Both the position numbers and the translations under genes were made by a program. Shown here piece after piece: positions 4,163 through 26,553 of a stretch of DNA of 32,000 nt. The notes beneath the pieces are model-generated. The model was not told the DNA's origin and did no database searches. It worked only from the letters and a program-made list of their open reading frames with translations. Source of the stretch: Acaryochloris marina MBIC11017 (GTDB lineage Bacteria > Cyanobacteriota > Cyanobacteriia > Thermosynechococcales > Thermosynechococcaceae); NCBI RefSeq assembly GCF_000018105.1, contig NC_009925.1:2010001-2042000 (forward strand). The letters are read 5' to 3'. How positions within the stretch are numbered: the stretch's first letter is position 1; every line of letters starts with the position of its first letter.

Positions 4163-4473
4163 TAACATTTTGAACCTCTATAAGCTGCTGTTGTTACTCA
4201 CTAATGTGGCATCAAAGACAGGTCGACCGTCTGCTCTTATGAGACAATGCAAGAGTAATAAAATACATATGTCGAGTGAAGAGCTTAGGGCTTGCCATCT
4301 TAAACACCAGATGCCAATTTAGTTATTAACGGCTAGCGAATACTATTACTAACAAAAAGCATTGCTGAATGTTATCGATTTGCTGTGTCCACTGAAATAA
4401 CTGCTGCTTAGGTGTATTGTTGTCTGTCCTCAAGCATTCGTTTACCGTTCAATTCTAATCTCTGAGTTTTACC

Positions 4474-4722
4474 ATGACCATTTATATTGGCAATCTGTCT
4501 TACCAAGCCACTGAAAACGATGTCCGAGAAGTTTTTAATGAGTATGGCACTGTTAAGCGAGTTGTTCTCCCAGTAGATCGTGAAACAGGCCGGATGCGGG
4601 GTTTTGCCTTCGTGGAAATGACAGAAGATAATGATGAAGAAACAGCGATTGCTGATTTAGATGGTGCTGAGTGGATGGGACGACAGCTAAAAGTCAATAA
4701 AGCTAAGCCTCGCGAACGATAA
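4474..4722 (+). CDS. rbp: Single-RRM RNA-binding protein, short cyanobacterial Rbp type without a Gly-rich tail.
   Basis: RNP2 IYIGNL and RNP1 RGFAFVEM motifs in 82 aa. It is preceded by a 311-nt untranslated gap, as is typical for rbp genes. Confidence 0.9.
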   Translation: MTIYIGNLSYQATENDVREVFNEYGTVKRVVLPVDRETGRMRGFAFVEMTEDNDEETAIADLDGAEWMGRQLKVNKAKPRER

Positions 4723-4856
4723 ACGATCATTCCAAAATTCTCAGTTGTCTTTAGCTATTCACCTATAGCCTTTCAGTATTAAATCTGTGTCGGGAGCCTC
4801 AACGGCTCATAGGGCAGATACGAAAATTCAATATCATGAGCCCTATATTTGAGATT

Positions 4857-4916
4857 TTTCTCTAAAAAGAAACCGCTTCATCTGTTGGATAACGAAGCGG
4901 TTTCTTTTTAGAGAAA
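4857..4916. terminator. Long perfect hairpin, probable bidirectional terminator, 135 nt downstream of rbp.
   Basis: TCTCTAAAAAGAAACCGCTTC (4859-4879) is the exact reverse complement of GAAGCGGTTTCTTTTTAGAGA (4894-4914). The stem extends by 2 further A-T pairs, and a T-run lies in the 3' arm on either strand. Confidence 0.65.
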
Positions 4917-5155
4917 TTTTATTAAAGGCTGTTGGTACAAACCTCACAAACGCCTTGTCTATATCCAAGTAAGCTGAGAACACAAGTTTGGATGAGTGAC
5001 CAATGGACACTTAACCCTCAAAACTAAGGGCGACTTAAAGAGTATTTACTAATCAGTTCGACATGCTGGCTTTGAGTACTCAAGCCAACAAATGACCAAA
5101 GACAAACTACTTTTGAGAACGAACTATCGTCTTAGTTATGAACGAGAAACCCGCA

Positions 5156-5187
5156 CAAAAGTACCTAGTTAACGATAACTAGGTACT
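5156..5187 (-). terminator. Rho-independent terminator of psbM.
   Basis: A 12-bp perfect stem, agtacctagtta (5160-5171) pairing with taactaggtact (5176-5187), with a 4-nt loop. On the minus strand it is followed by TTTT (complement of 5156-5159). Confidence 0.7.
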
Positions 5188-5225
5188 CTCAATCATCCTT
5201 TCAAATATCGTGCAAGGATTCTTGA

Positions 5226-5330
5226 CTAGCTTCCCCGGCTAGCGGTTTGAGCATAGAGAAGAATCAGAAACACACAAGGTATGAAGACGAATAAAGCGGT
5301 AGCAATTGCACCTAAATCATTAACTGGCAT
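5226..5330 (-). CDS. psbM: Photosystem II reaction-centre protein M (34 aa).
   Basis: Below the ORF-track cutoff. My translation is [34 protein letters not shown], which matches the PsbM pattern (M.VN.LG.IATALFV..P..FLI.LY.QT) with a single TM helix. Confidence 0.85.
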
Positions 5331-5489
5331 AGGAATTAATCTCTATCTCATCTGGGCATTTATAAACTTTACAATACCATTTTTGCTAAACCTCTTTGGA
5401 AAGATTTATCAATACCTACTTGAACAACACGGATGGTCATGCCTCTCTACGCTCCCTTATACAGGTCACAATTGGAATGACGATGACAG

Positions 5490-5789
5490 CTATGAAGGCT
5501 TGGTTTTAATGGAAGCAGACCCAAGCACCAAAGTTTGACAAGCGAGGCGATACGTCTCGGGTTTTCTCTTAAGCTTGGCATCTTCTACAGGCGTTCGAGG
5601 AGAAAGGTTCTCCATTCCCTCAACAACCTCAATAAGGCATGTTCCACATTGGCCATAGCCTCCGCAGTTCATTAACTTACCCTTAAACGTGTAGAGGTCA
5701 ATCTTGTTATCCAGCGCAACCGAGCGTAGATCATCTTCTTCTGAAATATCTATCTCTTGGCTTTCATTAACAAACAGAATGCTGGACAT
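5490..5789 (-). CDS. Small [2Fe-2S] ferredoxin-fold protein.
   Basis: Cys pattern C-x5-C-x2-C-x32-C ([15 protein letters not shown]...RLACQT) in 99 aa. No hairpin separates it from psbM downstream, so the two may be co-transcribed. Confidence 0.75.
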
Positions 5790-6326
5790 AGTTGGCGATA
5801 TACCTTGGATCTGAGATTTATTTAGTAAATGTTTACAGGTAAAGGGTTCAGCACAGAGAGTTTAGCAATAAGTTCATCAGCAGACAGGCCGACCAATTGC
5901 CAGTACGCCCGAATTTCAAATCGTTAAGTTCTCTTGCATTGAGTCCCTACTCTAGTTACACTTCGTTATACACTTTATTGTTTCGTATAGTACATTAGGT
6001 TGCCCTCAATCATTCAAACTCCAGAATCATTTACCACTGTTTCCAAAAGTTTGAGTGTGTCTTGCTTGTTTTAATAATAATCAGCATATTAGCCTACACC
6101 GTTGAGTTCTAGTGACTTCAATGTCAACTTAGGTCTGCCATGTAAGCACTAAGTATGATTCAATGAATCACAGTGACGACAGCAGTTGGCTTAAATTACT
6201 GAATTACTGCAATTGATACAAGAAGGGCTTCATAAACCAATTGTTTGTGAGGTCTTATTAGGATCGGCCCATTAAAAAAATGCTGCAAGTTAAAGTATTG
6301 ACGTTTTAAGAGGAGGAGCGTAGTCG

Positions 6327-16161: not shown

Positions 16162-16509
16162 AAATCAGTCATCACAGGCTCAGCAGTTCTGAACCCACAA
16201 GACTTAGACATCTCACCCAGTAGATTTCCTACAACAGGTTATTTGTTCTAGATGTCTGAACTGGAGATAAAGTCGATCTTGTAGATTGATAGGTTCATTA
16301 TTCATCACACCTTTTGAGAACGGGGTGACCTCCATCATCTACAGCGAAAGTTTACTTGCCTAGCATGATTCCAGTGTTCGGATACAACGGAAACACTGGA
16401 CAACACGCCAAGATCGCTCCAGCTGTAGCTACTGATTTTCAAAGTCAACGATAGCCACTCGATCTTGATGCCAGCAGAGCACTGTCTTACTCGGAGGAGA
16501 TTGCAGACG

Positions 16510-18585
16510 ATGCCACAGATGCGGAGATTTTCTCCAGGATTGTTAGGGTTTGTGATTATTGTGATGGGGCTTTGCAATATAGGGCATCAAAACCCTCAGA
16601 CTGTATTGGCAAATCCTGCCCGTGAAAACGCAACAGGACTGCCACCAACAGAGAAAAATCCCCAAGTTACGCCTGGATATGTAGAGGCCCAGCACCGCAT
16701 TCAACAGGCATTAGCAACACAAGCATCACAGTTAGATTTACAAGGGCTCTCTCTAACCCAACTCCCCCTTGAAATTGGACAACTCAAACATCTGGAAGTT
16801 CTGAATCTTCGGGACAACCAATTGAGTCGTCTGCCCCCTGAAATTGGACAGCTCATCCATCTAACCACCCTAGACCTCTGTTCCAATCGACTCAATCGCC
16901 TGCCAGCAGAAGTCACACAACTCACTACCCTGTCCAAGCTAGCCCTCTGCTTCAATCAGCTGAGTCATTTACCCATGGAAATGGCTCAGCTCAAGCATCT
17001 ACAATCTCTGGACCTCACGGCAAATCAGCTGACTAACCTGCCATCAAGTGTTACACAACTGAAAGAGTTGCAAACGCTAGATCTCAGCAATAACTGGCTG
17101 AAAAGCCTGCCGCCTGAAATCGCACAACTCAATAAGCTGAGACGGCTAGACTTGTTTAGAAATCAACTGAGTGGTCTGCCGCCAGAGATCATAAAGCTCA
17201 ATAATCTACAAACCTTAGGATTAGGCCATAACACACTGAGCAGTCTACCTGCGACTATTGCTAAGCTTACAAACCTCAAAAAACTAGACCTCCGTGCAAC
17301 TTCACTGAAGCGCCTACCACCAGAAATTCTTCAGCTCACTAAGCTGCAAGAGCTGGACCTCAGTGACAATAAACTCAGTAGCCTACCACCCGAAATCGCA
17401 CAACTCGTCAATCTGCAATCTTTACGACTCAAATTTACTCAGCTCAGTCACCCGCCAGCAGAATTGTCTCAACTCACCCATCTGCAAGAGTTGGATTTAA
17501 GTGGCAATTCCCTCAGCAGTCTGCCTAGAGAAATGGCAAAGCTCAAGAAGCTGCAAAAGCTAGATCTGAGTTACAACTCATTGAGAAACCTGCCAACAGT
17601 CATCACCCAACTGACCACTCTGCGATCGCTAGACCTGAGAAGCACTCAGCTTAACAGCCTGCCACCCGAAATCGCACAGCTCATCAACCTGCAATCCCTT
17701 GATCTCTATGACAATCCACTAACGCACTTACCCCAAGAAATTGGAACGCTCACCCATCTCAAAAAGCTCAATCTGAGTAAAACACAACTGACGAACCTCC
17801 CCCCTGCAATCATGAAACTCAAAAGGTTGCAGTCCCTAGATTTCAGTGGAAATCAACTCAGTAGCCTACCGATAGAAATCACGCAGATTATTAGTCTTAA
17901 AGAGCTAAACCTTAGTTTTAATCAACTCAGTAAACTGCCCGCAGATATTGGACAACTCAACAATCTCCAAGAGCTAGACCTGAGAGAGAATAAACTAGAT
18001 AGCCTACCGAAAGAAATTGGACAACTCAACAATCTGAAATCGCTAGTTCTCAGATTCAATCAACTCAACACCCTTCCCCCTGATATCGGACAGCTTAAAA
18101 ATCTAAAATCCCTGTCTATCCATGGCAATACCCTCAGTAGCCTGCCACCCGAAATCGGAAAGCTCAGCAGTCTGAAATCGCTCATTCTTAGAAGTAATCG
18201 ATTGAGTAGCCTACCACCCGAAATCGGAAAGCTCCATAATCTGAACTCGCTCAATCTGGTTGAGAATCAACTGAGTAGCCTACCAATCGAAATGAGAAAA
18301 CTCCAGAATTTAAGGGAGTTAGATCTTAGAAATAATCGACTGAGAAACCTACCGCTAGAAATGGGGCAGCTCAAGAGTTTGGGATTGGTGGACTTGAGTG
18401 ACAATCAACTGAGCAACCTGCCCAAAGAGATGGGGCAACTCTACAATCTCACAGTGTTATCCCTTGATCGCAATCAACTCAGTAACCTACCCATCGAGAT
18501 AGAACAGCTCTGGCCATCAACCAAGATAACGGTGGAGGGAAATCCACTGCCCTCCCATATCTTGAAGCGATACCGTCAGCCTTAG
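16510..18585 (+). CDS. Leucine-rich-repeat protein with an N-terminal signal/anchor, 26 consecutive 23-residue LRRs and a capping half repeat.
   Basis: The consensus LxLxxNxLxxLPxEIxQLxxLxx repeats without any indel. I chose the ATG at 16510 because GGAGGA (16493-16498) precedes it and it gives MPQMRRFSPGLLGFVIIVMGLC. The ORF track starts at a TTG at 16465. Confidence 0.85.
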   Translation: MPQMRRFSPGLLGFVIIVMGLCNIGHQNPQTVLANPARENATGLPPTEKNPQVTPGYVEAQHRIQQALATQASQLDLQGLSLTQLPLEIGQLKHLEVLNLRDNQLSRLPPEIGQLIHLTTLDLCSNRLNRLPAEVTQLTTLSKLALCFNQLSHLPMEMAQLKHLQSLDLTANQLTNLPSSVTQLKELQTLDLSNNWLKSLPPEIAQLNKLRRLDLFRNQLSGLPPEIIKLNNLQTLGLGHNTLSSLPATIAKLTNLKKLDLRATSLKRLPPEILQLTKLQELDLSDNKLSSLPPEIAQLVNLQSLRLKFTQLSHPPAELSQLTHLQELDLSGNSLSSLPREMAKLKKLQKLDLSYNSLRNLPTVITQLTTLRSLDLRSTQLNSLPPEIAQLINLQSLDLYDNPLTHLPQEIGTLTHLKKLNLSKTQLTNLPPAIMKLKRLQSLDFSGNQLSSLPIEITQIISLKELNLSFNQLSKLPADIGQLNNLQELDLRENKLDSLPKEIGQLNNLKSLVLRFNQLNTLPPDIGQLKNLKSLSIHGNTLSSLPPEIGKLSSLKSLILRSNRLSSLPPEIGKLHNLNSLNLVENQLSSLPIEMRKLQNLRELDLRNNRLRNLPLEMGQLKSLGLVDLSDNQLSNLPKEMGQLYNLTVLSLDRNQLSNLPIEIEQLWPSTKITVEGNPLPSHILKRYRQP
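16729..18552 (+). repeat. In-frame tandem array with a 69-nt period (26.4 units), encoding the LRRs.
   Basis: Near-identical 27-mers recur in phase. One pair is agcctaccacccgaaatcgcacaactc (~17381) and agcctgccacccgaaatcgcacagctc (~17656). A second pair is agcctgccacccgaaatcggaaagctc (~18139) and agcctaccacccgaaatcggaaagctc (~18208). Confidence 0.9.
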
Positions 18586-18642: not shown

Positions 18643-19752
18643 TTATGGCTGCGATCGCTCCCACAATCGCCCTACCTCTTTCAAGACTGGCACAGTCGGC
18701 GAGTCCATAACCTGAGCCTTAGGCTTCAATGCTATTCCCGTATCCTGTTTCCACAAGGCTGTTGCGTTCTCTTCCAGTTTCACATCAGGATGAACTGGGC
18801 GAAAACCATATTCAATCAATATTTTTTGCTGAGCGGGCTGTGACAGATAGTCAATAAAGTCTTGGGCTTTTTGGGCCGTTGGCTCATCCACTTGGCGGCG
18901 AACAATTGCTGCTGTGGGTTTGTTTTCCACCGTCGGGTTGATTTCATAAATTTGATAGGGTTGGCCTTGAGTCACCTTGGACTCCTCCCACCGGTTCAGG
19001 GCCACACTTTCGTAATTAGTGATGATATCGGCATCATTCGCTCCCCGGACTACAAACTCCTGCATCAAAATATCGCTAGAGCGGGCAGGCTGGTAAATCG
19101 AACGCTTCAGAGTAGACACCGCCGATTGGGCGATCGGACTATTCAAGTCAGCTGCCTGCAAGGAAGACGTTTGCAGCTTATGGGACAGCCAGAGACTCAA
19201 GGTCATTTGCCCACTATTAGAGCGAGTGGGGTCCGTCATTACAAAGTCAAAACTGCCCCAGTTAGCAGAGCCACCGAACGAACCCCACTGCTGAGCCTTC
19301 ATTGCCGTTTCGAGTCGATTCCAACTAAATTTTCCGTCTGGGAATAGAGCCTTGCCCCGTGCCGGCCAGGTAATGGCAACGAGGCGAGTTTTCGCCACCG
19401 GGGTCGGGTCACCATAAAAGGCAGGCCCTGAGGATTGAGCCGTCCATCGCTGCTCTAGGCGTTTAAGGGTGTCCTGATTGGCAGGAATTAATACCGTAGG
19501 TTGAAAATCATTGCGGTCATCAATAAAGCGATTCACCATATCCAAGGACCCCTGAACCTTGAGGTCAATGCGGATCTTAGATTGTTGTTGATGGAAAGTC
19601 TCAATCAGCTTTTTTAGGGGTGGCTCTAATTCCGAGCCACTGACTACTACCAGGGTTTGGACCTGATCATCGGGCAAGGGATAAAAGGTCAATCCTAGAG
19701 ATGCAGCGATAATCGCCAGAGAAATATATAGGGACCGCTGAGACTTCACCAT
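18643..19752 (-). CDS. Orphan periplasmic solute-binding-domain protein, paralogous to the N-terminal domain of the vWA lipoprotein.
   Basis: Signal/anchor SLYISLAIIAASLGL. It shares the PTRSNSG motif (19210-19230) and collinear motifs with the 20523-22244 product. The ATG lies 8 nt after the upstream stop, with GGAGA in the spacer. Confidence 0.75.
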   Translation of the reverse strand: MVKSQRSLYISLAIIAASLGLTFYPLPDDQVQTLVVVSGSELEPPLKKLIETFHQQQSKIRIDLKVQGSLDMVNRFIDDRNDFQPTVLIPANQDTLKRLEQRWTAQSSGPAFYGDPTPVAKTRLVAITWPARGKALFPDGKFSWNRLETAMKAQQWGSFGGSANWGSFDFVMTDPTRSNSGQMTLSLWLSHKLQTSSLQAADLNSPIAQSAVSTLKRSIYQPARSSDILMQEFVVRGANDADIITNYESVALNRWEESKVTQGQPYQIYEINPTVENKPTAAIVRRQVDEPTAQKAQDFIDYLSQPAQQKILIEYGFRPVHPDVKLEENATALWKQDTGIALKPKAQVMDSPTVPVLKEVGRLWERSQP

Positions 19753-19760
19753 GTTTCTCC

Positions 19761-20492
19761 CTAGGTCAATACCAACACATCCAGGTTTTCTTGAAAATCT
19801 CGCAGCTCATCACTGAGACTCTTAAGTTCTGCAGATTGACTCGCCTCAGCTAAGTTCGCACTCCGCAACTGATTCTGCATGGCCTGCAATACGCCAGCCG
19901 ACTCAGCAATCAGTTGGGACAGACTCAAAAGCTGGGCCTGACGGGCATCTTGGCCCTGCTGAGCTAGGCTGATATTGCGCTGGAGGCTTTGGTCAAGCTG
20001 TTGGAGTTGTTGTTGAGTGGCTCCAGAGCTTTGGGCTAACTTCTTTTGGACGGTAACCCGCTGCTGCTGCAACTCCTGCACGGACAAAATTGAATCATCA
20101 CCATGGAGACGTTCGGCCATTGCTTCGATTTTTTGGGGCAATTCGGTGGTGCGATCGCACGCATACTGCAACGTCCCCAACAACTCCATTTGCGAAGATT
20201 GGGTCAGCAAGTTTTGAGCTTCTGTCTTCAGAACCTGGGCCTTGTGAGCTAGCTTGTTTGCTTGGGTGCGCAAATTACCCAGTTCCTTTGCCACAGAAGG
20301 ACTTCGAGGTTTGGGCTTTGCCCCTAGCGAGGACTCAGATGCAATCACACCTGCGCCAATCGTAGCCACTCCCGCCGCTAAGGGCAGCATCACAAAATGA
20401 TTAAGCTTGGCAATCCGCACGCCGCCCACTAAAACAATTCCACCGGCTAATACCGCGAGGGGATGATACAAGGGATTAACAAGTTTCACCAC
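19761..20492 (-). CDS. Membrane-anchored coiled-coil protein with two N-terminal hydrophobic helices and a ~170-aa Q/L/A-rich helical region.
   Basis: The hydrophobic segments are HPLAVLAGGIVLVGGVRIA and FVMLPLAAGVATIGAGVIA. A heptad-like sequence follows (QQQLQQLDQSLQRNISLAQQGQDARQAQLLSL...). GTG start with GAGGA 4-5 nt upstream, 30 nt after the vWA gene stop. Confidence 0.65.
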   Translation of the reverse strand: MVKLVNPLYHPLAVLAGGIVLVGGVRIAKLNHFVMLPLAAGVATIGAGVIASESSLGAKPKPRSPSVAKELGNLRTQANKLAHKAQVLKTEAQNLLTQSSQMELLGTLQYACDRTTELPQKIEAMAERLHGDDSILSVQELQQQRVTVQKKLAQSSGATQQQLQQLDQSLQRNISLAQQGQDARQAQLLSLSQLIAESAGVLQAMQNQLRSANLAEASQSAELKSLSDELRDFQENLDVLVLT

Positions 20493-20522
20493 AGCATCCT
20501 CATGACTGGCACATGAACTTCT

Positions 20523-22244
20523 CTAAAACTCCACTTGTAAGTCTGCCATCAACTGGGCGATGGAGGCGGGATCTCCTTGACGATAATATCCGCCATTGGC
20601 TTCCGCAATCTGCTTCAGTACATCCGGAGCGAAATCCCCAGCATTGCCATAGCCAACTGTAAAAATAGCAATCCGCTGTTCCCCTTCAAAACCACTCTTT
20701 TTCAGAGCTGATAACAATTGAGGTAATTGCTGGCCAGACCCTGAATCTTCACCATCGGTCAGCACGATGACTGCATTAATGGCATTGGGTCGTAAATTCT
20801 GGGTGAGCCAAGTCTGCGCCGCCAGAATGGAATCGTACAACTTGGTATTACCATCCGCCTTTAAGGCCACGACAAATTCCAAACCTTTTGACTGACCTTC
20901 TGGCGAACCATCTACGGATACAGGCTTACGAACGACTGAGTCAAAGTCGATGAGTGTAACTTTCTCTTTGGGGCCAAGACCTTTCAAGTAAGTCTGGAGT
21001 GTAGACTGCACAGCGGCTAGCTTGGTCCCCGTCATGGAGCCCGACGAATCCACCACAATCACGACCTGTGAAGGTTTCTTGGCTGCGGTTTGCCAGGACT
21101 GCAGCATCGCTTCCACCACTTCCGGTTTGGGAACCCGAAAAGAATCATACTTGGGCTGGGCTTCGACCCCCCAGGTTTGAGTAAACTTATTCCCCAAGGC
21201 GACTCCAGGCGTTCCGGGTCGTAATCCCAGCGTCGTCCCAATCTGTTGGGTCTCTGGCTGGCGTATATATCGAATAATTTGCTCAGCGGCCTCTTTTTCA
21301 GCCGGACTTACCCAAGGACCAGTCGATAGTACTCCCCGCATATTCGAGGTATAGGTAATCCCAGGGTAAACGGCTTGATAGCGAGGTTGTCCTGCAGGAA
21401 CCTGAGCATTGGCCGCAATCACGGAAGATTCATACACCGACCCCACCGACGCCCAAAAAGGCCCATTAGCCACCATCGCCTTAGCGAGGGAGGTCGTGGA
21501 GGTCCCATAACGTGTAATTTTTTGCTGGATTTCGCCGACTTTACCTTGGTGAGCACCCACATCAGCGACCGTCAGCTGATCCGGTCGTTTGCCTGAGACT
21601 GACGCAAACTGAGCGACTAGGGTTTGTAATCCTGAGTTAGAACGAGTGGGGGCCGTATGCACATATCGCAGGGGCAACGGCTGGCTACCCGCATCTAAGT
21701 CTTTATGGCTTTTGGCCGTGAGCAATGCTTGAAATGGATCTTTAGTCTTACGAAGACTTTGGGCTAAATCCTCCCGCACCATAAACACCATCGGACTATT
21801 GGCCAGCAAAGGCGCATCCGCTACGGTCGGCAAATAATTTTGTCCTGGAAAAAGCTGGCTGAATTGATAGGCTAGCTGGTCAACGTAAATGTCACCATCC
21901 AAGGAAACCAAGGTCGGCCAACTCGGATCTTCCGCCGAAACACTGCCATTTTTCAGAGCATTCGCCTGGGTCAACAACTCGGAAACAATATCTCCACTGC
22001 CTTTGGCCACACACTTCACCGTAAAGGAGCTGCCGTCCTTCAGCTTAGGTCCCGTTTGATTGAAACGCTCCATACTTTGTTGGCAAAAATCTCCCATGGC
22101 ACTCCCCACCAAAAAGGTGACCTCCATGCCTGGACTGCTCGAAGAGCTACCAGTGGGTCCACCGCCACTACAAGCAGCACTCAGGGAGACCAAGACTGCC
22201 GCCTGACAGCGCAGTAGGATTTTACGGGTCGTTTGTTTCGCCAT
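20523..22244 (-). CDS. Probable lipoprotein fusing a solute-binding domain to a C-terminal von Willebrand factor A domain.
   Basis: The signal ends in LSAAC followed by a Gly/Ser linker. The SBP-like domain carries PTRSNSG (21630-21650). The C-terminal 180 aa (about 20526-21065) have a complete MIDAS: VVIVVDSSGSMTG ... DGNT ... LTDGED. Confidence 0.8.
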   Translation of the reverse strand: MAKQTTRKILLRCQAAVLVSLSAACSGGGPTGSSSSSPGMEVTFLVGSAMGDFCQQSMERFNQTGPKLKDGSSFTVKCVAKGSGDIVSELLTQANALKNGSVSAEDPSWPTLVSLDGDIYVDQLAYQFSQLFPGQNYLPTVADAPLLANSPMVFMVREDLAQSLRKTKDPFQALLTAKSHKDLDAGSQPLPLRYVHTAPTRSNSGLQTLVAQFASVSGKRPDQLTVADVGAHQGKVGEIQQKITRYGTSTTSLAKAMVANGPFWASVGSVYESSVIAANAQVPAGQPRYQAVYPGITYTSNMRGVLSTGPWVSPAEKEAAEQIIRYIRQPETQQIGTTLGLRPGTPGVALGNKFTQTWGVEAQPKYDSFRVPKPEVVEAMLQSWQTAAKKPSQVVIVVDSSGSMTGTKLAAVQSTLQTYLKGLGPKEKVTLIDFDSVVRKPVSVDGSPEGQSKGLEFVVALKADGNTKLYDSILAAQTWLTQNLRPNAINAVIVLTDGEDSGSGQQLPQLLSALKKSGFEGEQRIAIFTVGYGNAGDFAPDVLKQIAEANGGYYRQGDPASIAQLMADLQVEF

Positions 22245-22357: not shown

Positions 22358-23695
22358 TTATTTCCACAACCGTTTCCACCAAGGCTCGGGTTTAGGATTT
22401 TGAAAGTCCATCTTCTGGCGAATATCCTGAATATTCCACCCTGTGAGCTTAGCCAGGGTTTGGGCTTCCTTCTCAAACCGAGCGGGGAGGGATTGCTTGT
22501 AGCGACGACCGGCAGGACAATCCGCCTTCTGCTTGTAAGGGTGGCGCATCACATAGCGTCCTTGGAACAACTGACGGTTGCTAGTTTCTTGGAATACCAA
22601 ATCTTCAGGAAATTTATCGCGACTATAGCGAACATGCAGACGGGTGATAAATACGCCTGTTGAACGAGGGGGGACTACAAAATCACCTTGAGGTCGCTCA
22701 GGCAGCCAGAACACCCCTGCTTTACGCAACTCTTCTGGGTTCAATGGCGTTGCCGAACAGGGATCGCAATTGCTCATATCCCAAGCATATTCTCGAAAGG
22801 CAACCCGCTTACCCGCTTTAGCATGAGCCGTCTCAAACATAGCGGTATAGAACTCACCAAACTCATCCTTCACAAACTCAGGGATCTCCGCATCCGTGGG
22901 AATATTGGCAGTGCGATAGTTGACCAGCTCCGCTTGTCCCTTAGGAGAGAGCAAATACACAATCAAATCTTGCTCTGTATTGGCATTGATCATGCCTAAC
23001 CGAATCGGTAGCATAAACTTGGGCGAATCAAAGGCCATCTGCAAAGGCCGTAGCTTCTGAAATTCAGATTTCTCAAATTCTTCTAGGTTGACTTTGGCCA
23101 CGAAGAATTTCATATTCTGGCGAATATAGGGCTTCAGTAGTGACCGTGCCCCTCGGGGGATTTTATAGCCATTACGATTCAGCCAGGTCTGGAGCCCATT
23201 GGATTCCTTTGCACTGAGAATGACAATGTCATACTCCCCAACAGTGAACTGGGCTTCGACGGTGACACCTAAATCGGCCTCAGTTCGAGACTCTTGCAGC
23301 GGAGCCGAACTGGGGGCAGCCGATAACTCCCTGTCGAGAGATTTACGAAAAACTTGGCAGGGATTTTCGTCAAAATATTCCACTAATCGGGGGGCAGAAA
23401 AATCATCCAGCCGTTGCAAGATCGTGGGATCGCCGACATGCACTTGGTCTTCCTGCAGGAGGACTGGGACGGGCACCACCATGGCGAAATCTTTCACGTC
23501 TCCTTTGAAGTCGTTGGCCATGGTGAGTACGGTGCGGCTGCCATCTTTTGCGATCGCAACTTGAGACGCCTCGTTATACAAAGCCGTATCGGCTTTAGCG
23601 ACATAAAACCCACAAAAGGCCAAAGCATTGGGTGACAGGCTAGTCCACATCAACACAGCCACCAGACAAGCACTAAGGAAACGTTTCATTTTCAT
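22358..23695 (-). CDS. Secreted protein of unknown function, DUF2330-like.
   Basis: Signal peptide MKMKRFLSACLVAVLMWTSLSPNALA, then FCGFYVAKAD. The 445-aa size and the N-terminal CG(F/G)F motif match my recollection of DUF2330. It is on the same strand, 113 nt upstream of the vWA gene. Confidence 0.6.
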   Translation of the reverse strand: MKMKRFLSACLVAVLMWTSLSPNALAFCGFYVAKADTALYNEASQVAIAKDGSRTVLTMANDFKGDVKDFAMVVPVPVLLQEDQVHVGDPTILQRLDDFSAPRLVEYFDENPCQVFRKSLDRELSAAPSSAPLQESRTEADLGVTVEAQFTVGEYDIVILSAKESNGLQTWLNRNGYKIPRGARSLLKPYIRQNMKFFVAKVNLEEFEKSEFQKLRPLQMAFDSPKFMLPIRLGMINANTEQDLIVYLLSPKGQAELVNYRTANIPTDAEIPEFVKDEFGEFYTAMFETAHAKAGKRVAFREYAWDMSNCDPCSATPLNPEELRKAGVFWLPERPQGDFVVPPRSTGVFITRLHVRYSRDKFPEDLVFQETSNRQLFQGRYVMRHPYKQKADCPAGRRYKQSLPARFEKEAQTLAKLTGWNIQDIRQKMDFQNPKPEPWWKRLWK

Positions 23696-23874: not shown

Positions 23875-26553
23875 CTAGGACTTGGTCGTTTTCTTCGCAG
23901 TGGTCTTTTTCGCTGCTGTCTTTTTAGTCGTCGTTTTCTTAGCGGTAGTCTTCTTAGTGGTTTTCTTCTTCGTGGTTGATTTAGCGCGACTCGTCTTTTT
24001 CTTCCCCTTCGTCGAGGCTTTCTCCGCCAATAACGGCAGAGCCATCTCCAAAGTCACGTCTTCAACTTTTTTCCCTTCAGGCAAGGAGACATTCGTCTTA
24101 TTGTGCTTAATATATGGGCCATAGGGACCGTCATACACATTGACGGGTGCTTCATCTTCCGGGTGACTGCCCAGTTCTTTCAAGGCTTTTTTCGTACCCC
24201 GTCGTCCCCGAGTGCCTTTGGGCATTGCCAATAATTCCAAAGCTCGCTCAAACGAGATAGTGAATAGATTATCTTCTTTCTTGAGTGACCGATAATCTTT
24301 TCCTTCTTTGCCTTGGTCATGGACTACATAGGGACCAAACCGCCCCAAACCGACCTGAACCTTGCAGCCCGTATCCGGATGCTGGCCCAGCAACCGAGGC
24401 AAGGACAAGAGCTCGACCGCCATATCTAAGGTCACCGACTCCATCGCCACTCCCTTGGGCAGAGAGGCTCGTTTAGGCTTTTTATTTTCCTCGGTGACAT
24501 CCCCTAACTGGACATAAGGCCCATAGGCACCGAGCAGAATATAAATAGGCTCTCCTTTCTCGGGGTGGAAGCCTAATTTCTCAGGACCTTCCAGCTTTTG
24601 TTTAAGGAGTTGCTCAATTTGTTCTGGTGTCAAATCCGCTGGCGTCATATCTTTGGGCAAAGACGCCTTAACGGGTTTTTCCTCATGCTCCGTCTCGATA
24701 TAGGGACCAAAACGACCAATTCTCACTTTGGCTTCCAGATTATCCAGATCAATGGTCCGAGCTTCACCTGGATCAATCTGATCCTGCCGAGTTTTGACTA
24801 GAGTTTCCAGACCTTCATCTCCCAGATAAAAGTCGCTTAGATATGGCAGCCACTCCACCTCACCAGTGGAGATGCCATCCAATCTGCGCTCCATGCGCGC
24901 CGTAAAGCTGAGATCCACTAAATCTGGAAAATGTTGCTCCAACAAAGCGGTGACAGCAAAGGCGGTAAAGGTGGGCACCAAAGCATTGGCCTGGCGCTGA
25001 GCATAGCCCCGGTCAATAATCGTGCCGATCACACTGGCATAGGTACTAGGACGACCAATCCCCTCTTTCTCCAGCATTTTCACCAGAGATGCTTCCGTAA
25101 ACCGGGCAGGTGGCTGGGTCTCATGGCCAATGGGGGAAAGCTCTGTGCACTCCGGCGTATCCCCTTGCTTCAGGGAAGGCAGCAACACCTCTTGATCATC
25201 CAAAGCGGCATCGGGATCATCGGACCCTTCTACATAAGCCCGGAAAAATCCAGGAAAATCAATGCGCTTACCCGTCGATCGGAACCCAGCATCTTCAACT
25301 TCTAGATGAACCGTAATGTGGGTTTGACGTGCCTCAGCCATTTGGGTAGCGACGGTGCGCTTCCAGATTAGGTCATAGAGTTTACTTTCTGCGCCTTGTA
25401 AGTCCGTCTCTTTAGGGGTACGGAAGGTTTGTCCAGCCGGACGAATCGCTTCATGAGCTTCTTGAGCCCCCTTGCTTTTCGTCTTATACTGCCTCGGCTC
25501 AGGACTCAGGTAGTTTTTCCCGTAGAGGTCTTCCACGCAGCTCCGAGCAGCCGCAATGGCCTGCTGCGACAGATTCACCGAATCTGTTCGCATATAGGTA
25601 ATAAATCCCTTCTCATACAGACTCTGGGCCACCCGCATGGTTTCTCGCGCCGACAGTCTTAGTTTGCGGTTGGCTTCTTGCTGCAGTGTAGAGGTAATAA
25701 AGGGAGGCGCAGGCTTACGAGTAGACGGGCGCTCATCCACCCCCGCAACGGACCAGGTTTTATCGGTCAGACGAGCTTGTAAAGCCAGGGTCTCCTCTTC
25801 ATTCAGCAGAACCACATCTCGCCCTGCAATGATTTGCCCGGTATTCTCGTCAAAATCATTGCCTGTGGCTAATCGCTTGTCAGCTAGGGTCACCAAGCGC
25901 GATTCAAACGACGATTTATCTTTGCTAAGGGCTGCTTTTAAGTCCCAATAGCTGCCTTGGCGGAAGGCACGTCGCTCTCGCTCCCGCTTAACGAGCAGCC
26001 GCACTGCGACAGACTGTACCCGTCCCGCAGACAAGCTAGGGGCAATCTTTTTCCACAGCAGGGGAGATAGGGTGTATCCCACCAAACGGTCTAAAATACG
26101 GCGAGTTTCTTGAGCCCGAACCAACCGCTGATCCACCTCACGGCAGTTGGTTAAGGCAGCTTTAATTGCTTCATCCGTGATCTCATGAAAGACCATCCGC
26201 TTCGTCGGCACCTTAGGCTTCAGAAGCTGCAGCAGATGCCAGCTAATACTTTCCCCCTCTCTGTCTTCGTCAGTCGCTAGCACTAACTCATCGGAATTTT
26301 TAAGGGCTTCTTTCAGCTCTTTGACAATTTTTTTCTTATCTTTGGGGACAACATATAAAGGTTCAAAATCGGACTGAACATTGACCCCTAAGCTGGACCA
26401 TTTCTCACCTTTAACCGCTGCGGGGATTTCTGATGCAGTCCGGGGTAGATCACGAACATGCCCCATCGATGCTTCAACCCGGTATCCCGAAGGCAGATAA
26501 TTGCGGATTGTTTTCGCCTTCGTAGGAGATTCAACAATAACCAGTGTGGACAT
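23875..26553 (-). CDS. topA: DNA topoisomerase I (type IA).
   Basis: Toprim [15 protein letters not shown] and the active-site Tyr context [10 protein letters not shown]. There are four Cys-less C-terminal repeats ([32 protein letters not shown]) and a Lys/Thr-rich tail. Confidence 0.95.

Follow-up and report, generated by a model that had tools for sequence, protein, structure and literature searches.

A conserved SBP-vWA lipoprotein gene and its membrane-protein partners in Acaryochloris marina: a possible transporter-independent anion receptor or capture complex

A stretch of 32,000 nucleotides of Acaryochloris marina MBIC11017 (NC_009925.1, positions 2,010,001 to 2,042,000; hereafter the window, in whose own numbering positions are given) carries three closely packed genes on its minus strand. 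Gene 1 encodes a predicted lipoprotein in which a substrate-binding protein (SBP) domain is fused to a von Willebrand factor type A (vWA) domain, gene 2 encodes a membrane protein with a hydrophobic hairpin and a helical domain, and gene 3 encodes a second, orphan SBP that is predicted to be membrane anchored. We favor the interpretation, to which we assign a probability of roughly 40%, that this module forms a transporter-independent, membrane-spanning receptor or capture complex for an anion. This interpretation is built on the domain identities of the proteins, their conservation, an invariant metal ion-dependent adhesion site (MIDAS), gene fusions, a dedicated membrane partner, and the lack of linkage to a transporter. 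To these it adds a proposed topology, an anionic ligand, MIDAS-mediated docking, and a role in sensing or capture.

The gene 1 product begins with a signal peptide that ends in a cysteine (Cys25), which is invariant in 14 orthologs and precedes a Gly/Ser-rich linker. Most orthologs carry the lipobox L-[SVT]-[AGS]-C, and the Acaryochloris lipobox, with Ser at position -3 (L-S-A-A-C), is slightly atypical. The protein is predicted to be a lipoprotein and to be anchored as such. Pfam detected SBP_bac_8 (E 1.6e-33), SBP_bac_11, and VWA (E 5e-14) in gene 1; the score for PF00092 was 53.3 bits against a cut-off of 23.8, and VWA_2 and VWA_3 were likewise above cut-off. The MIDAS residues D399, S401, S403, T467, and D497 are invariant among 14 diverse orthologs and are kept in relatives from Thiodictyon, Miltoncostaea, Streptomyces, and Variovorax. 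Against the PDB, the vWA domain matched ITIH4 at E 7.9e-12 when a single sequence was used and at 2e-16 with the family profile. An AlphaFold 2 (AF2) model of gene 1 reached a predicted local distance difference test score (pLDDT) of 79.6 and a predicted template modeling score (pTM) of 0.71, and the Foldseek matches of the vWA domain were ITIH, CMG2, and alpha2delta. Gene 1 orthologs are 53 to 60% identical across the sampled cyanobacteria, with ~60% identity between Acaryochloris and Nostoc. An earlier, sequence-only reading of this DNA had described a signal ending in a Cys, a binding-protein-like domain, and a vWA domain with a complete MIDAS. The Cys proved invariant across the family despite the slightly atypical lipobox, and Pfam and the residue conservation among the 14 orthologs confirmed the two domains and the intact metal site.

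Gene 3 encodes an SBP of the SBP_bac_11 family (E 7.7e-22) that is 100% identical to A. marina ABW27054.1/WP_012162546.1 and has BAB76100.1 as its ortholog in Anabaena PCC 7120. The SBP domain of gene 1 and gene 3 are 28% identical over 200 amino acids (aa) (E 3e-11), and the motifs GS..D.V, PT.L, YES, QP..Q, and G.RP occupy matching columns in an alignment of the two. Gene 3 is thus a stand-alone copy of the gene 1 binding fold, as had been proposed together with a shared PTRSNSG heptad and a set of collinear motifs, all of which are present in both proteins. Foldseek placed the SBP domain of gene 1 closest to the sulfate-binding proteins 5um2, 1sbp, and 6ddn (SubI among them), followed by PotD and FutA. 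A profile of the SBP clade recovered these sulfate-binding proteins again (E 2e-6 to 1e-5), with ModA next, and the GS(G), (W/Y)-E, and (F/Y)-R-P motifs of the clade align with those of Sbp.

When gene 3 and the SBP domain of gene 1 were aligned across phyla with the relatives from Thiodictyon, Miltoncostaea, Streptomyces, and Variovorax, the invariant positions were the Ser of the GS loop, the Ser and Gly of the P-x-x-S-N/T-S/T-G loop, the Glu of Y-E, and the Arg of F-R-P. Sbp contacts sulfate through its Ser45 loop, its Ser130-Gly-Gly loop, and Trp192, and the anion-binding loops of Sbp and PstS use a strand-loop-helix N-terminus geometry. Compared with these contacts, the GS(G) loop and the Y/W-E motif of the clade align by sequence, and the putative correspondence of S-N-S-G comes from the secondary structure of the model only. 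In the AF2 model of gene 1, PTRSNSG is placed between the strand formed by residues 193-196 and the N-terminus of the helix formed by residues 205-217.

The conservation of gene 1 is unusual for an SBP and suggests a conserved macromolecular partner, and vWA MIDAS domains, ITIH, CMG2, and alpha2delta being the top matches here, typically serve in protein-protein adhesion. The module is also found in a divergent, probably picocyanobacterial genome. These features would fit a structural envelope tether or assembly factor, in which the SBP folds no longer bind small molecules but protein or glycan, the MIDAS anchors some other component of the envelope to the plasma membrane, and the cytoplasmic domain of gene 2 makes the connection to a cytoplasmic scaffold. 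However, conservation of the clade across phyla is highest in the loops that surround the ligand cleft in related SBPs (S, S-x-x-G, Y-E, and R-P being invariant), which argues that a small-ligand site has been kept, and we consider a purely structural role unlikely.

The relationship of the SBP domains to characterized families is distant. With the sulfate SBP models TIGR00971 and NF008022, gene 3 scored 18.2 against a cut-off of 155.5 and 18.0 against a cut-off of 288, respectively, and gene 1 gave no match. The SBP scored 15.2 bits with the ModA model TIGR01256 (cut-off 62.5) and 16.6 bits with the PstS model TIGR02136 (cut-off 206.6). Matches in NCBIfam were sub-threshold only, and the JGI name of gene 3, 'ABC-type molybdate transport system substrate-binding protein', is an automatic one. 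Because every curated cut-off was missed widely, the SBP clade is, as judged from sequence, a distant sister group to the oxyanion binders Sbp and ModA and lies outside every characterized subfamily. The possibility, raised at the outset, that the PTRSNSG domain would map to a known phosphate or sulfate family is not supported by these scores. An oxyanion-type ligand may reasonably be proposed for the SBP domains.

One genome per species was scanned with gene 1, which gave 473 confirmed matches, the best 80 of which were essentially all from cyanobacteria. Synteny was counted over loci with sufficient flanking DNA, and flanking open reading frames (ORFs) were clustered over 83 loci. A gene 2 homolog follows gene 1 at 78 of 78 loci, with a median gap of ~33 nt, and a gene 3 homolog lies within 5 kb downstream at 57 of 59, at times with one or two inserted genes. 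The three-gene order is thus conserved across cyanobacteria, in agreement with the earlier suggestion that the genes form a single unit. Clustering of the flanks revealed no further family at more than 14 of the 83 loci, and such recurrence reflected lineage-specific synteny. ORFs resembling ATP-binding cassette (ABC) ATPases were present at 4 of the 83 loci, all at least 2.5 kb off and in inconsistent positions. Within the 32 kb of the window, Walker A, LSGGQ, and EAA-loop motifs are absent from all ORFs of at least 80 aa, and Pfam scans of the genes neighboring the module detected zero ABC families. The claim that no ABC permease or ATPase gene accompanies the two SBPs therefore holds for the window, and across the 83 loci the homologs likewise have no consistent ABC neighbor.

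The module varies at its margins. In CP035632.1, a divergent, high-GC genome of 2.98 Mb that is probably picocyanobacterial, gene 1 is 53% identical and retains both PTRSNSG and an intact MIDAS; a divergent gene 2 comes next, and there is no adjacent gene 3. At 9 loci from Nostocales and some other filamentous cyanobacteria, an extra 184-aa gene stands between genes 2 and 3 (L001:12500-13054; also L028, L034, L037, and L082, among others). Its product, which belongs to no Pfam family, has hydrophobic segments at both termini and is a possible fourth component specific to these lineages. All three genes of the module also occur on a contig labelled 'Candidatus Sericytochromatia' (L046), where gene 1 is 61% identical to that of the window; either the module extends to this sister lineage, which is non-photosynthetic, or cyanobacterial DNA was binned wrongly.

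An alternative explanation is that the SBPs deliver their ligand to a distant ABC importer, for example of sulfate, thiosulfate, or molybdate, and that the vWA domain and gene 2 merely tether them. The fold and nearest relatives of the SBPs are those of sulfate- and molybdate-binding proteins, gene 3 is annotated automatically as a molybdate SBP, and picocyanobacteria are known to have orphan SBP genes whose products work with distant transporters (PMC8786288). Nevertheless, the scores lie far under the cut-offs of every characterized subfamily, and ABC genes show no positional association with the module in the 83 cyanobacterial loci, in the four annotated non-cyanobacterial loci described below, or in metagenomic loci (an approximate count for the last). 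Moreover, an obligatory hairpin-helical partner and a fused MIDAS domain are not traits of delivery SBPs. Delivery to a distant importer is thus quite unlikely.

Gene 2 defines a family of its own. Of its 301 homologs, none has a Pfam domain, and a search of 1.84 billion proteins with the gene 2 profile, in which every sequence was read, returned just 102 representatives, all members of the family; the named members are all cyanobacterial. The conserved motifs are NPLYYPL, YACDR..ELP.KI, RNI.LAQQGQDARQAQ, and AGVLQ.LQN.LR, and the C-terminal 184 residues contain 16.8% Q and 16.8% L. Because these motifs are specific and invariant, gene 2 is more than a low-complexity coiled coil. The AF2 model, which is of low confidence (pLDDT 64), consists of the hairpin followed by seven helices of ~13-31 residues. 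Gene 2 had been described as a two-helix anchor with a long Q/L-rich coiled coil; the hairpin and the Q/L richness stand, but in this low-confidence model the single long coiled coil is replaced by the seven helices. Foldseek searches with the weak model returned generic helical bundles only (E of at least 0.1).

In one cyanobacterial clade, gene 2 is fused in frame to gene 3; the fusion proteins form three clusters (P0247, P0424, and P0431; 602-605 aa) drawn from NCBI, JGI, and Logan assemblies. One fusion (L085:1821-3629) lies directly downstream of a gene 1 homolog and contains no hidden stop at the junction. Since some cyanobacteria encode both proteins as a single polypeptide, genes 2 and 3 are linked physically and functionally as one unit. 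In the fusions, the linker VDLLVG[DE]PG...QDRRSF[LI] is followed by the gene 3 hydrophobic helix and then by the SBP. The RRSF[LI] segment of this linker, just ahead of the retained anchor helix, is twin-arginine-like.

The fusions also bear on the topology of the module. Unfused gene 3 has a K/R-rich N-terminus and a single hydrophobic helix, with no Cys and no AXA cleavage site, and is therefore predicted to be a signal anchor that leaves the SBP outside. Because an odd number of membrane helices separates the gene 2 helical domain from the SBP in the fusions, the helical domain is probably cytoplasmic, and the module would therefore span the membrane instead of being wholly extracytoplasmic. 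The earlier description of an extracytoplasmic module is thus not upheld, as three fusions that keep the gene 3 anchor, preceded by RR, indicate a cytoplasmic location for the helical domain of gene 2. In the actinobacterial-type partners described below, basic residues clearly outnumber acidic ones in the stretch that follows the hairpin (4.3 K/R vs 2.3 D/E), which points to the same cytoplasmic placement of the helical domain.

SBP-vWA proteins are not restricted to cyanobacteria. A tblastn search of annotated plasmids recovered full-length SBP-vWA proteins in four non-cyanobacterial lineages. In Miltoncostaea and Streptomyces, the SBP-vWA gene is followed by a gene for a hairpin-helical protein of 264 aa and 271 aa, respectively. 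The Variovorax locus (NZ_LR594667.1 512180-527322; L092) encodes, in order, an orphan SBP, TelA, a small ORF, an SBP-vWA protein, and a hairpin-helical protein of 208 aa. On the Thiodictyon plasmid pTs417 (NZ_CP020371.1 396329-411960; L090), SBP-vWA is followed by a 490-aa SBP paralog and a secreted 224-aa protein, with no hairpin protein. A metagenome scan with the non-cyanobacterial SBP-vWA proteins yielded 80 loci, mostly from soil. A same-strand ORF directly follows SBP-vWA at 63 of the 64 metagenomic loci with downstream room, and 47 of these 63 ORFs, of ~230-270 aa, have the Gly-rich hairpin N-terminus ...EL.DPWG.LVAGVSGG... ([DEN]P[WF]). The non-cyanobacterial hairpin partners resemble gene 2 in position, size, and build. 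The unit that recurs across phyla is therefore SBP-vWA with a hairpin-helical partner. Because only the gene 1 and gene 2 pair stays adjacent both in the divergent cyanobacterial genome and in actinobacterial-type loci, this pair is the core. Gene 3, which is not found beside the pair in CP035632.1 or in actinobacterial-type loci, is outside the universal core.

Two further features of these loci were observed. Some actinobacterial-type metagenomic contigs (L158, L167, and L170) carry two SBP-vWA genes close by on the same strand. In Thiodictyon, pstB-pstS and a CHAD-domain gene lie within ~7 kb, pstSB being ~5 kb off with five unrelated genes between; a phosphate or polyphosphate context is possible.

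The Variovorax locus is relevant to another explanation, namely that the module confers Ter/TelA-type resistance to toxic anions or envelope stress, with gene 2 as an analog of TelA and gene 1 as a secreted counterpart of TerY. At this locus an orphan SBP, TelA, SBP-vWA, and the hairpin-helical protein stand in a row, with flotillin- and NfeD-like genes nearby; the TelA is a true PF05816 protein (E 1e-35), and the SBP resembles anion binders. However, this is the sole locus with an adjacent TelA. None was detected in the 80 metagenomic loci, an approximate count obtained by single-sequence phmmer of limited sensitivity, and none in the flanks of the 83 cyanobacterial loci; the association with TelA is sporadic. 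Gene 2 itself gave no Pfam match to TelA (PF05816) at E <= 0.1, and hhalign against the confirmed TelA returned a probability of 0.85%. NCBIfam, a PDB sequence search, and the exhaustive profile search were also negative, and the kinship of gene 2 with TelA or XpaC, of which the sequence-only reading had seen a loose echo, was rejected. Pfam scans found no Ter, PP2C, or kinase genes in the window, and none recurs in the flanks of the 83 loci. A Ter/TelA-type resistance function is, on this evidence, very unlikely.

The Variovorax module also lies between the flotillin/NfeD-like genes and a Wadjet (JetA) system, the latter ~3 kb away. Since vWA and coiled-coil proteins occur in some defense systems, this proximity could be taken as a sign of anti-phage defense. 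Nevertheless, PADLOC returned zero matches for genes 1 and 3 and weak coiled-coil noise for gene 2 (E 0.002 or worse), and a single-copy, phylum-wide, vertically conserved chromosomal locus amid housekeeping genes is unlike patchy defense islands. An anti-phage function is therefore extremely improbable.

In the interpretation that we favor, that of a membrane-spanning anion receptor or capture complex, the gene 1 product would be a periplasmic lipoprotein whose Sbp/ModA-like cleft probably binds a small, oxyanion-type ligand and whose vWA domain would grip a carboxylate on a partner protein through the metal of its MIDAS. Gene 3 would provide a second binding protein, held at the membrane by its uncleaved N-terminal helix. 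Gene 2 would contribute the Gly-rich hairpin in the membrane and, on the cytoplasmic side, a conserved helical domain of ~190 aa. When the periplasmic SBPs capture ligand, MIDAS-mediated docking at the membrane would be altered, and the cytoplasmic helical domain of gene 2 would report or exploit this change. The outcome would be anion sensing, sequestration, or envelope-stress signaling, not ABC import.

Several observations weigh against this interpretation. The signaling role is inference only. Gene 2 has no recognizable output domain or significant structural match in its weak model. If its periplasmic part is just the short turn of the hairpin, gene 2 offers no carboxylate to the MIDAS. 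The positive-inside rule is ambiguous for cyanobacterial gene 2: across 19 homologs the hairpin loop always contains 1-2 K/R but lacks D/E, which would favor the opposite topology. Homology between gene 2 and the non-cyanobacterial partners was not demonstrated, as hhalign gave less than 10% with single sequences and 23%, over the hairpin only, with profile-profile comparison. The invariant Glu of Y-E-S is also present in Sbp. Upstream of gene 1 (81 loci), neither NtcA, Pho, or Fur boxes nor dyad discovery showed enrichment; the sole enriched element was HIP1, a genome-wide feature.

More broadly, we hypothesize that SBP-vWA with its hairpin-helical partner, joined in most cyanobacteria by an anchored SBP paralog, could represent an unrecognized cross-phylum class of transporter-independent periplasmic receptor. 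In such a receptor, ligand-induced closure of the Sbp-like domain would be coupled through the MIDAS to a membrane-spanning partner that signals to, or organizes, something cytoplasmic. Given how widespread the module is in cyanobacteria, its role would be a core one, for example anion homeostasis or the sensing of envelope state. This wider proposal is tentative and somewhat doubtful.

The features of the module are listed in Table 1. All three ORFs are present as first described, with intergenic spacers of 30 nt (gene 1/gene 2) and 8 nt (gene 2 stop/gene 3 start) and with the two sites resembling ribosome-binding sites (RBS) ahead of the downstream starts. Two GTG codons in tandem (20487-20492) open gene 2. 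The second (20489) appears to fit better as the start, because of its 7-nt spacing from GAGGA and the N-terminus MKLVNPLY of the homologs; it gives a protein of 242 aa and a spacer of 33 nt.

Table 1. Features of the three-gene module, in window coordinates
Feature	Position	Strand	Description	Basis
Gene 1	20523-22244	minus	573-aa predicted lipoprotein, SBP domain fused to vWA domain	ORF list, Pfam
Signal peptide, gene 1	22170-22244	minus	ends at lipobox Cys25 (LSAAC)	sequence; Cys25 invariant in 14 orthologs
Type II SBP domain, gene 1	21120-22127	minus	~residues 40-375	Foldseek, clade profile
PTRSNSG loop, gene 1	21630-21650	minus	residues 199-205	sequence, AF2 model
vWA domain, gene 1	20526-21071	minus	residues 392-573	Pfam VWA, VWA_2, VWA_3
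MIDAS motif DSSGS, gene 1	21036-21050	minus	residues 399-403 (+ T467, D497)	sequence
GAGGA RBS-like site	20497-20501	minus	5' of gene 2; 4 nt to first GTG, 7 nt to second	sequence
Gene 2	19761-20492	minus	243-aa (or 242-aa) membrane protein, GTG start	ORF list
Gly-rich two-helix hydrophobic hairpin, gene 2	20331-20462	minus	residues 11-54	AF2 helices 11-27, 32-54
GGAGA RBS-like site	19756-19760	minus	5' of gene 3	sequence
Gene 3	18643-19752	minus	369-aa predicted membrane-anchored orphan SBP, paralog of gene 1 SBP	ORF list, Pfam SBP_bac_11
Predicted N-terminal signal-anchor helix, gene 3	19672-19734	minus	residues 7-27	no Cys, no AXA site
PTRSNSG loop, gene 3	19210-19230	minus		sequence; aligned with gene 1 loop

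The neighboring genes of the window are chromosomal housekeeping genes, encoding a Wza-like exporter, GlgA, PsbB, RimM, an amidase, UbiD, TopA, and NdhB. Scans of the window for tRNA genes and Rfam families gave zero matches, and a promoter and terminator scan of the region gave background levels only. Directly upstream of gene 1 lies a gene for a DUF2330 protein (22358-23695, minus; 445 aa, with a signal peptide). It was rejected as a fourth member of the module, its adjacency being confined to Acaryochloris genomes. Just downstream of gene 3, and convergent with it, a gene with a TTG start (16465-18585, plus) encodes a 706-aa protein that consists nearly entirely of leucine-rich repeats and has an N-terminal hydrophobic segment. 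This spot varies between strains, since in L002, from a close relative within A. marina, the equivalent position is occupied by another gene, of 355 aa. Elsewhere in the window, ~2.1 kb upstream of psbB (4163-6326) contain no ORF of at least 100 aa and have the lowest G+C of the window (0.40-0.41); Rfam and tRNA scans of this segment found nothing. The C-terminus of TopA (23875-26553, minus) is a long Lys/Thr/Ala-rich tail (23875-24010) reminiscent of histone-H1-like DNA-binding tails.

In Variovorax and Streptomyces, NCBI annotation already recognizes the two-domain architecture under the purely descriptive name 'substrate-binding and VWA domain-containing protein', and the partner genes of these annotated loci are labelled hypothetical. 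A 2026 survey tabulates SBP_bac_11 and VWA as a domain co-occurrence. No paper using the product name was found, and the literature searched, which did not extend to the Ter comparative-genomics survey, yielded no functional study, partner name, or description of the module, consistent with the initial impression that the combination has no characterized function. The parts are thus familiar, and their arrangement is uncharacterized. The module is highly conserved in cyanobacteria, and Actinomycetota and Proteobacteria also have its two-gene core. Should the module act as a receptor, it would represent a new, transporter-free mode for substrate-binding proteins and a defined role for secreted MIDAS domains of bacteria, and it would give a widely conserved cyanobacterial gene set a function that is directly testable in model strains. 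If it serves ordinary delivery to a distant ABC importer, it would be of modest interest.

Among known systems, the SBPs of the module share with Sbp, CysP, SubI, and ModA (SBP_bac_11) the type II SBP fold, the GS(G) loop, the (W/Y)-E and (F/Y)-R-P motifs, and a loop at a helix N-terminus. They differ in being only 16-17% identical to these proteins, in scoring below their cut-offs, in having no ABC partners, and in the vWA fusion and the hairpin-helical partner. With Ter/TelA modules, the likeness is the pairing of a vWA protein with a helical membrane-associated protein, and one Variovorax locus unites TelA with the pair. Anantharaman, Iyer, and Aravind reportedly described stress modules of TerY vWA proteins and TelA in their 2012 comparative genomics of Ter systems. 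Unlike TerY-type proteins, the gene 1 vWA domain is predicted to be secreted, with its signal peptide and lipobox Cys, and is fused to an SBP, and it has no linked Ter, kinase, or phosphatase genes.

The gene 1 vWA domain has a perfect MIDAS, and its closest structural matches are alpha2delta (a subunit of voltage-gated Ca2+ channels), ITIH heavy chains, and the anthrax toxin receptor CMG2. Alpha2delta is likewise an extracellular, lipid-anchored protein; it unites a vWA domain with a domain for small molecules and uses its MIDAS to dock onto a membrane protein. However, ligand binding here would fall to an SBP instead of a Cache domain, and the membrane partner has a two-helix hairpin instead of being a channel; the analogy is functional only and implies no common descent outside the vWA domain. 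In LuxP-LuxQ, TorT-TorS, and ChvE-VirA, a periplasmic SBP docks on a membrane protein with a cytoplasmic domain, without a transporter. The fusion of gene 2 to gene 3 recreates this layout of SBP, transmembrane segment, and cytoplasmic domain. In contrast to such sensors, Pfam detects no kinase, HAMP, GGDEF, or methyl-accepting domain in the module, the cytoplasmic domain would be an uncharacterized helical one, and a MIDAS is involved. The nearest functional analogies of the module are SBP-dependent sensors of the LuxP-LuxQ type together with lipid-anchored MIDAS co-receptors.

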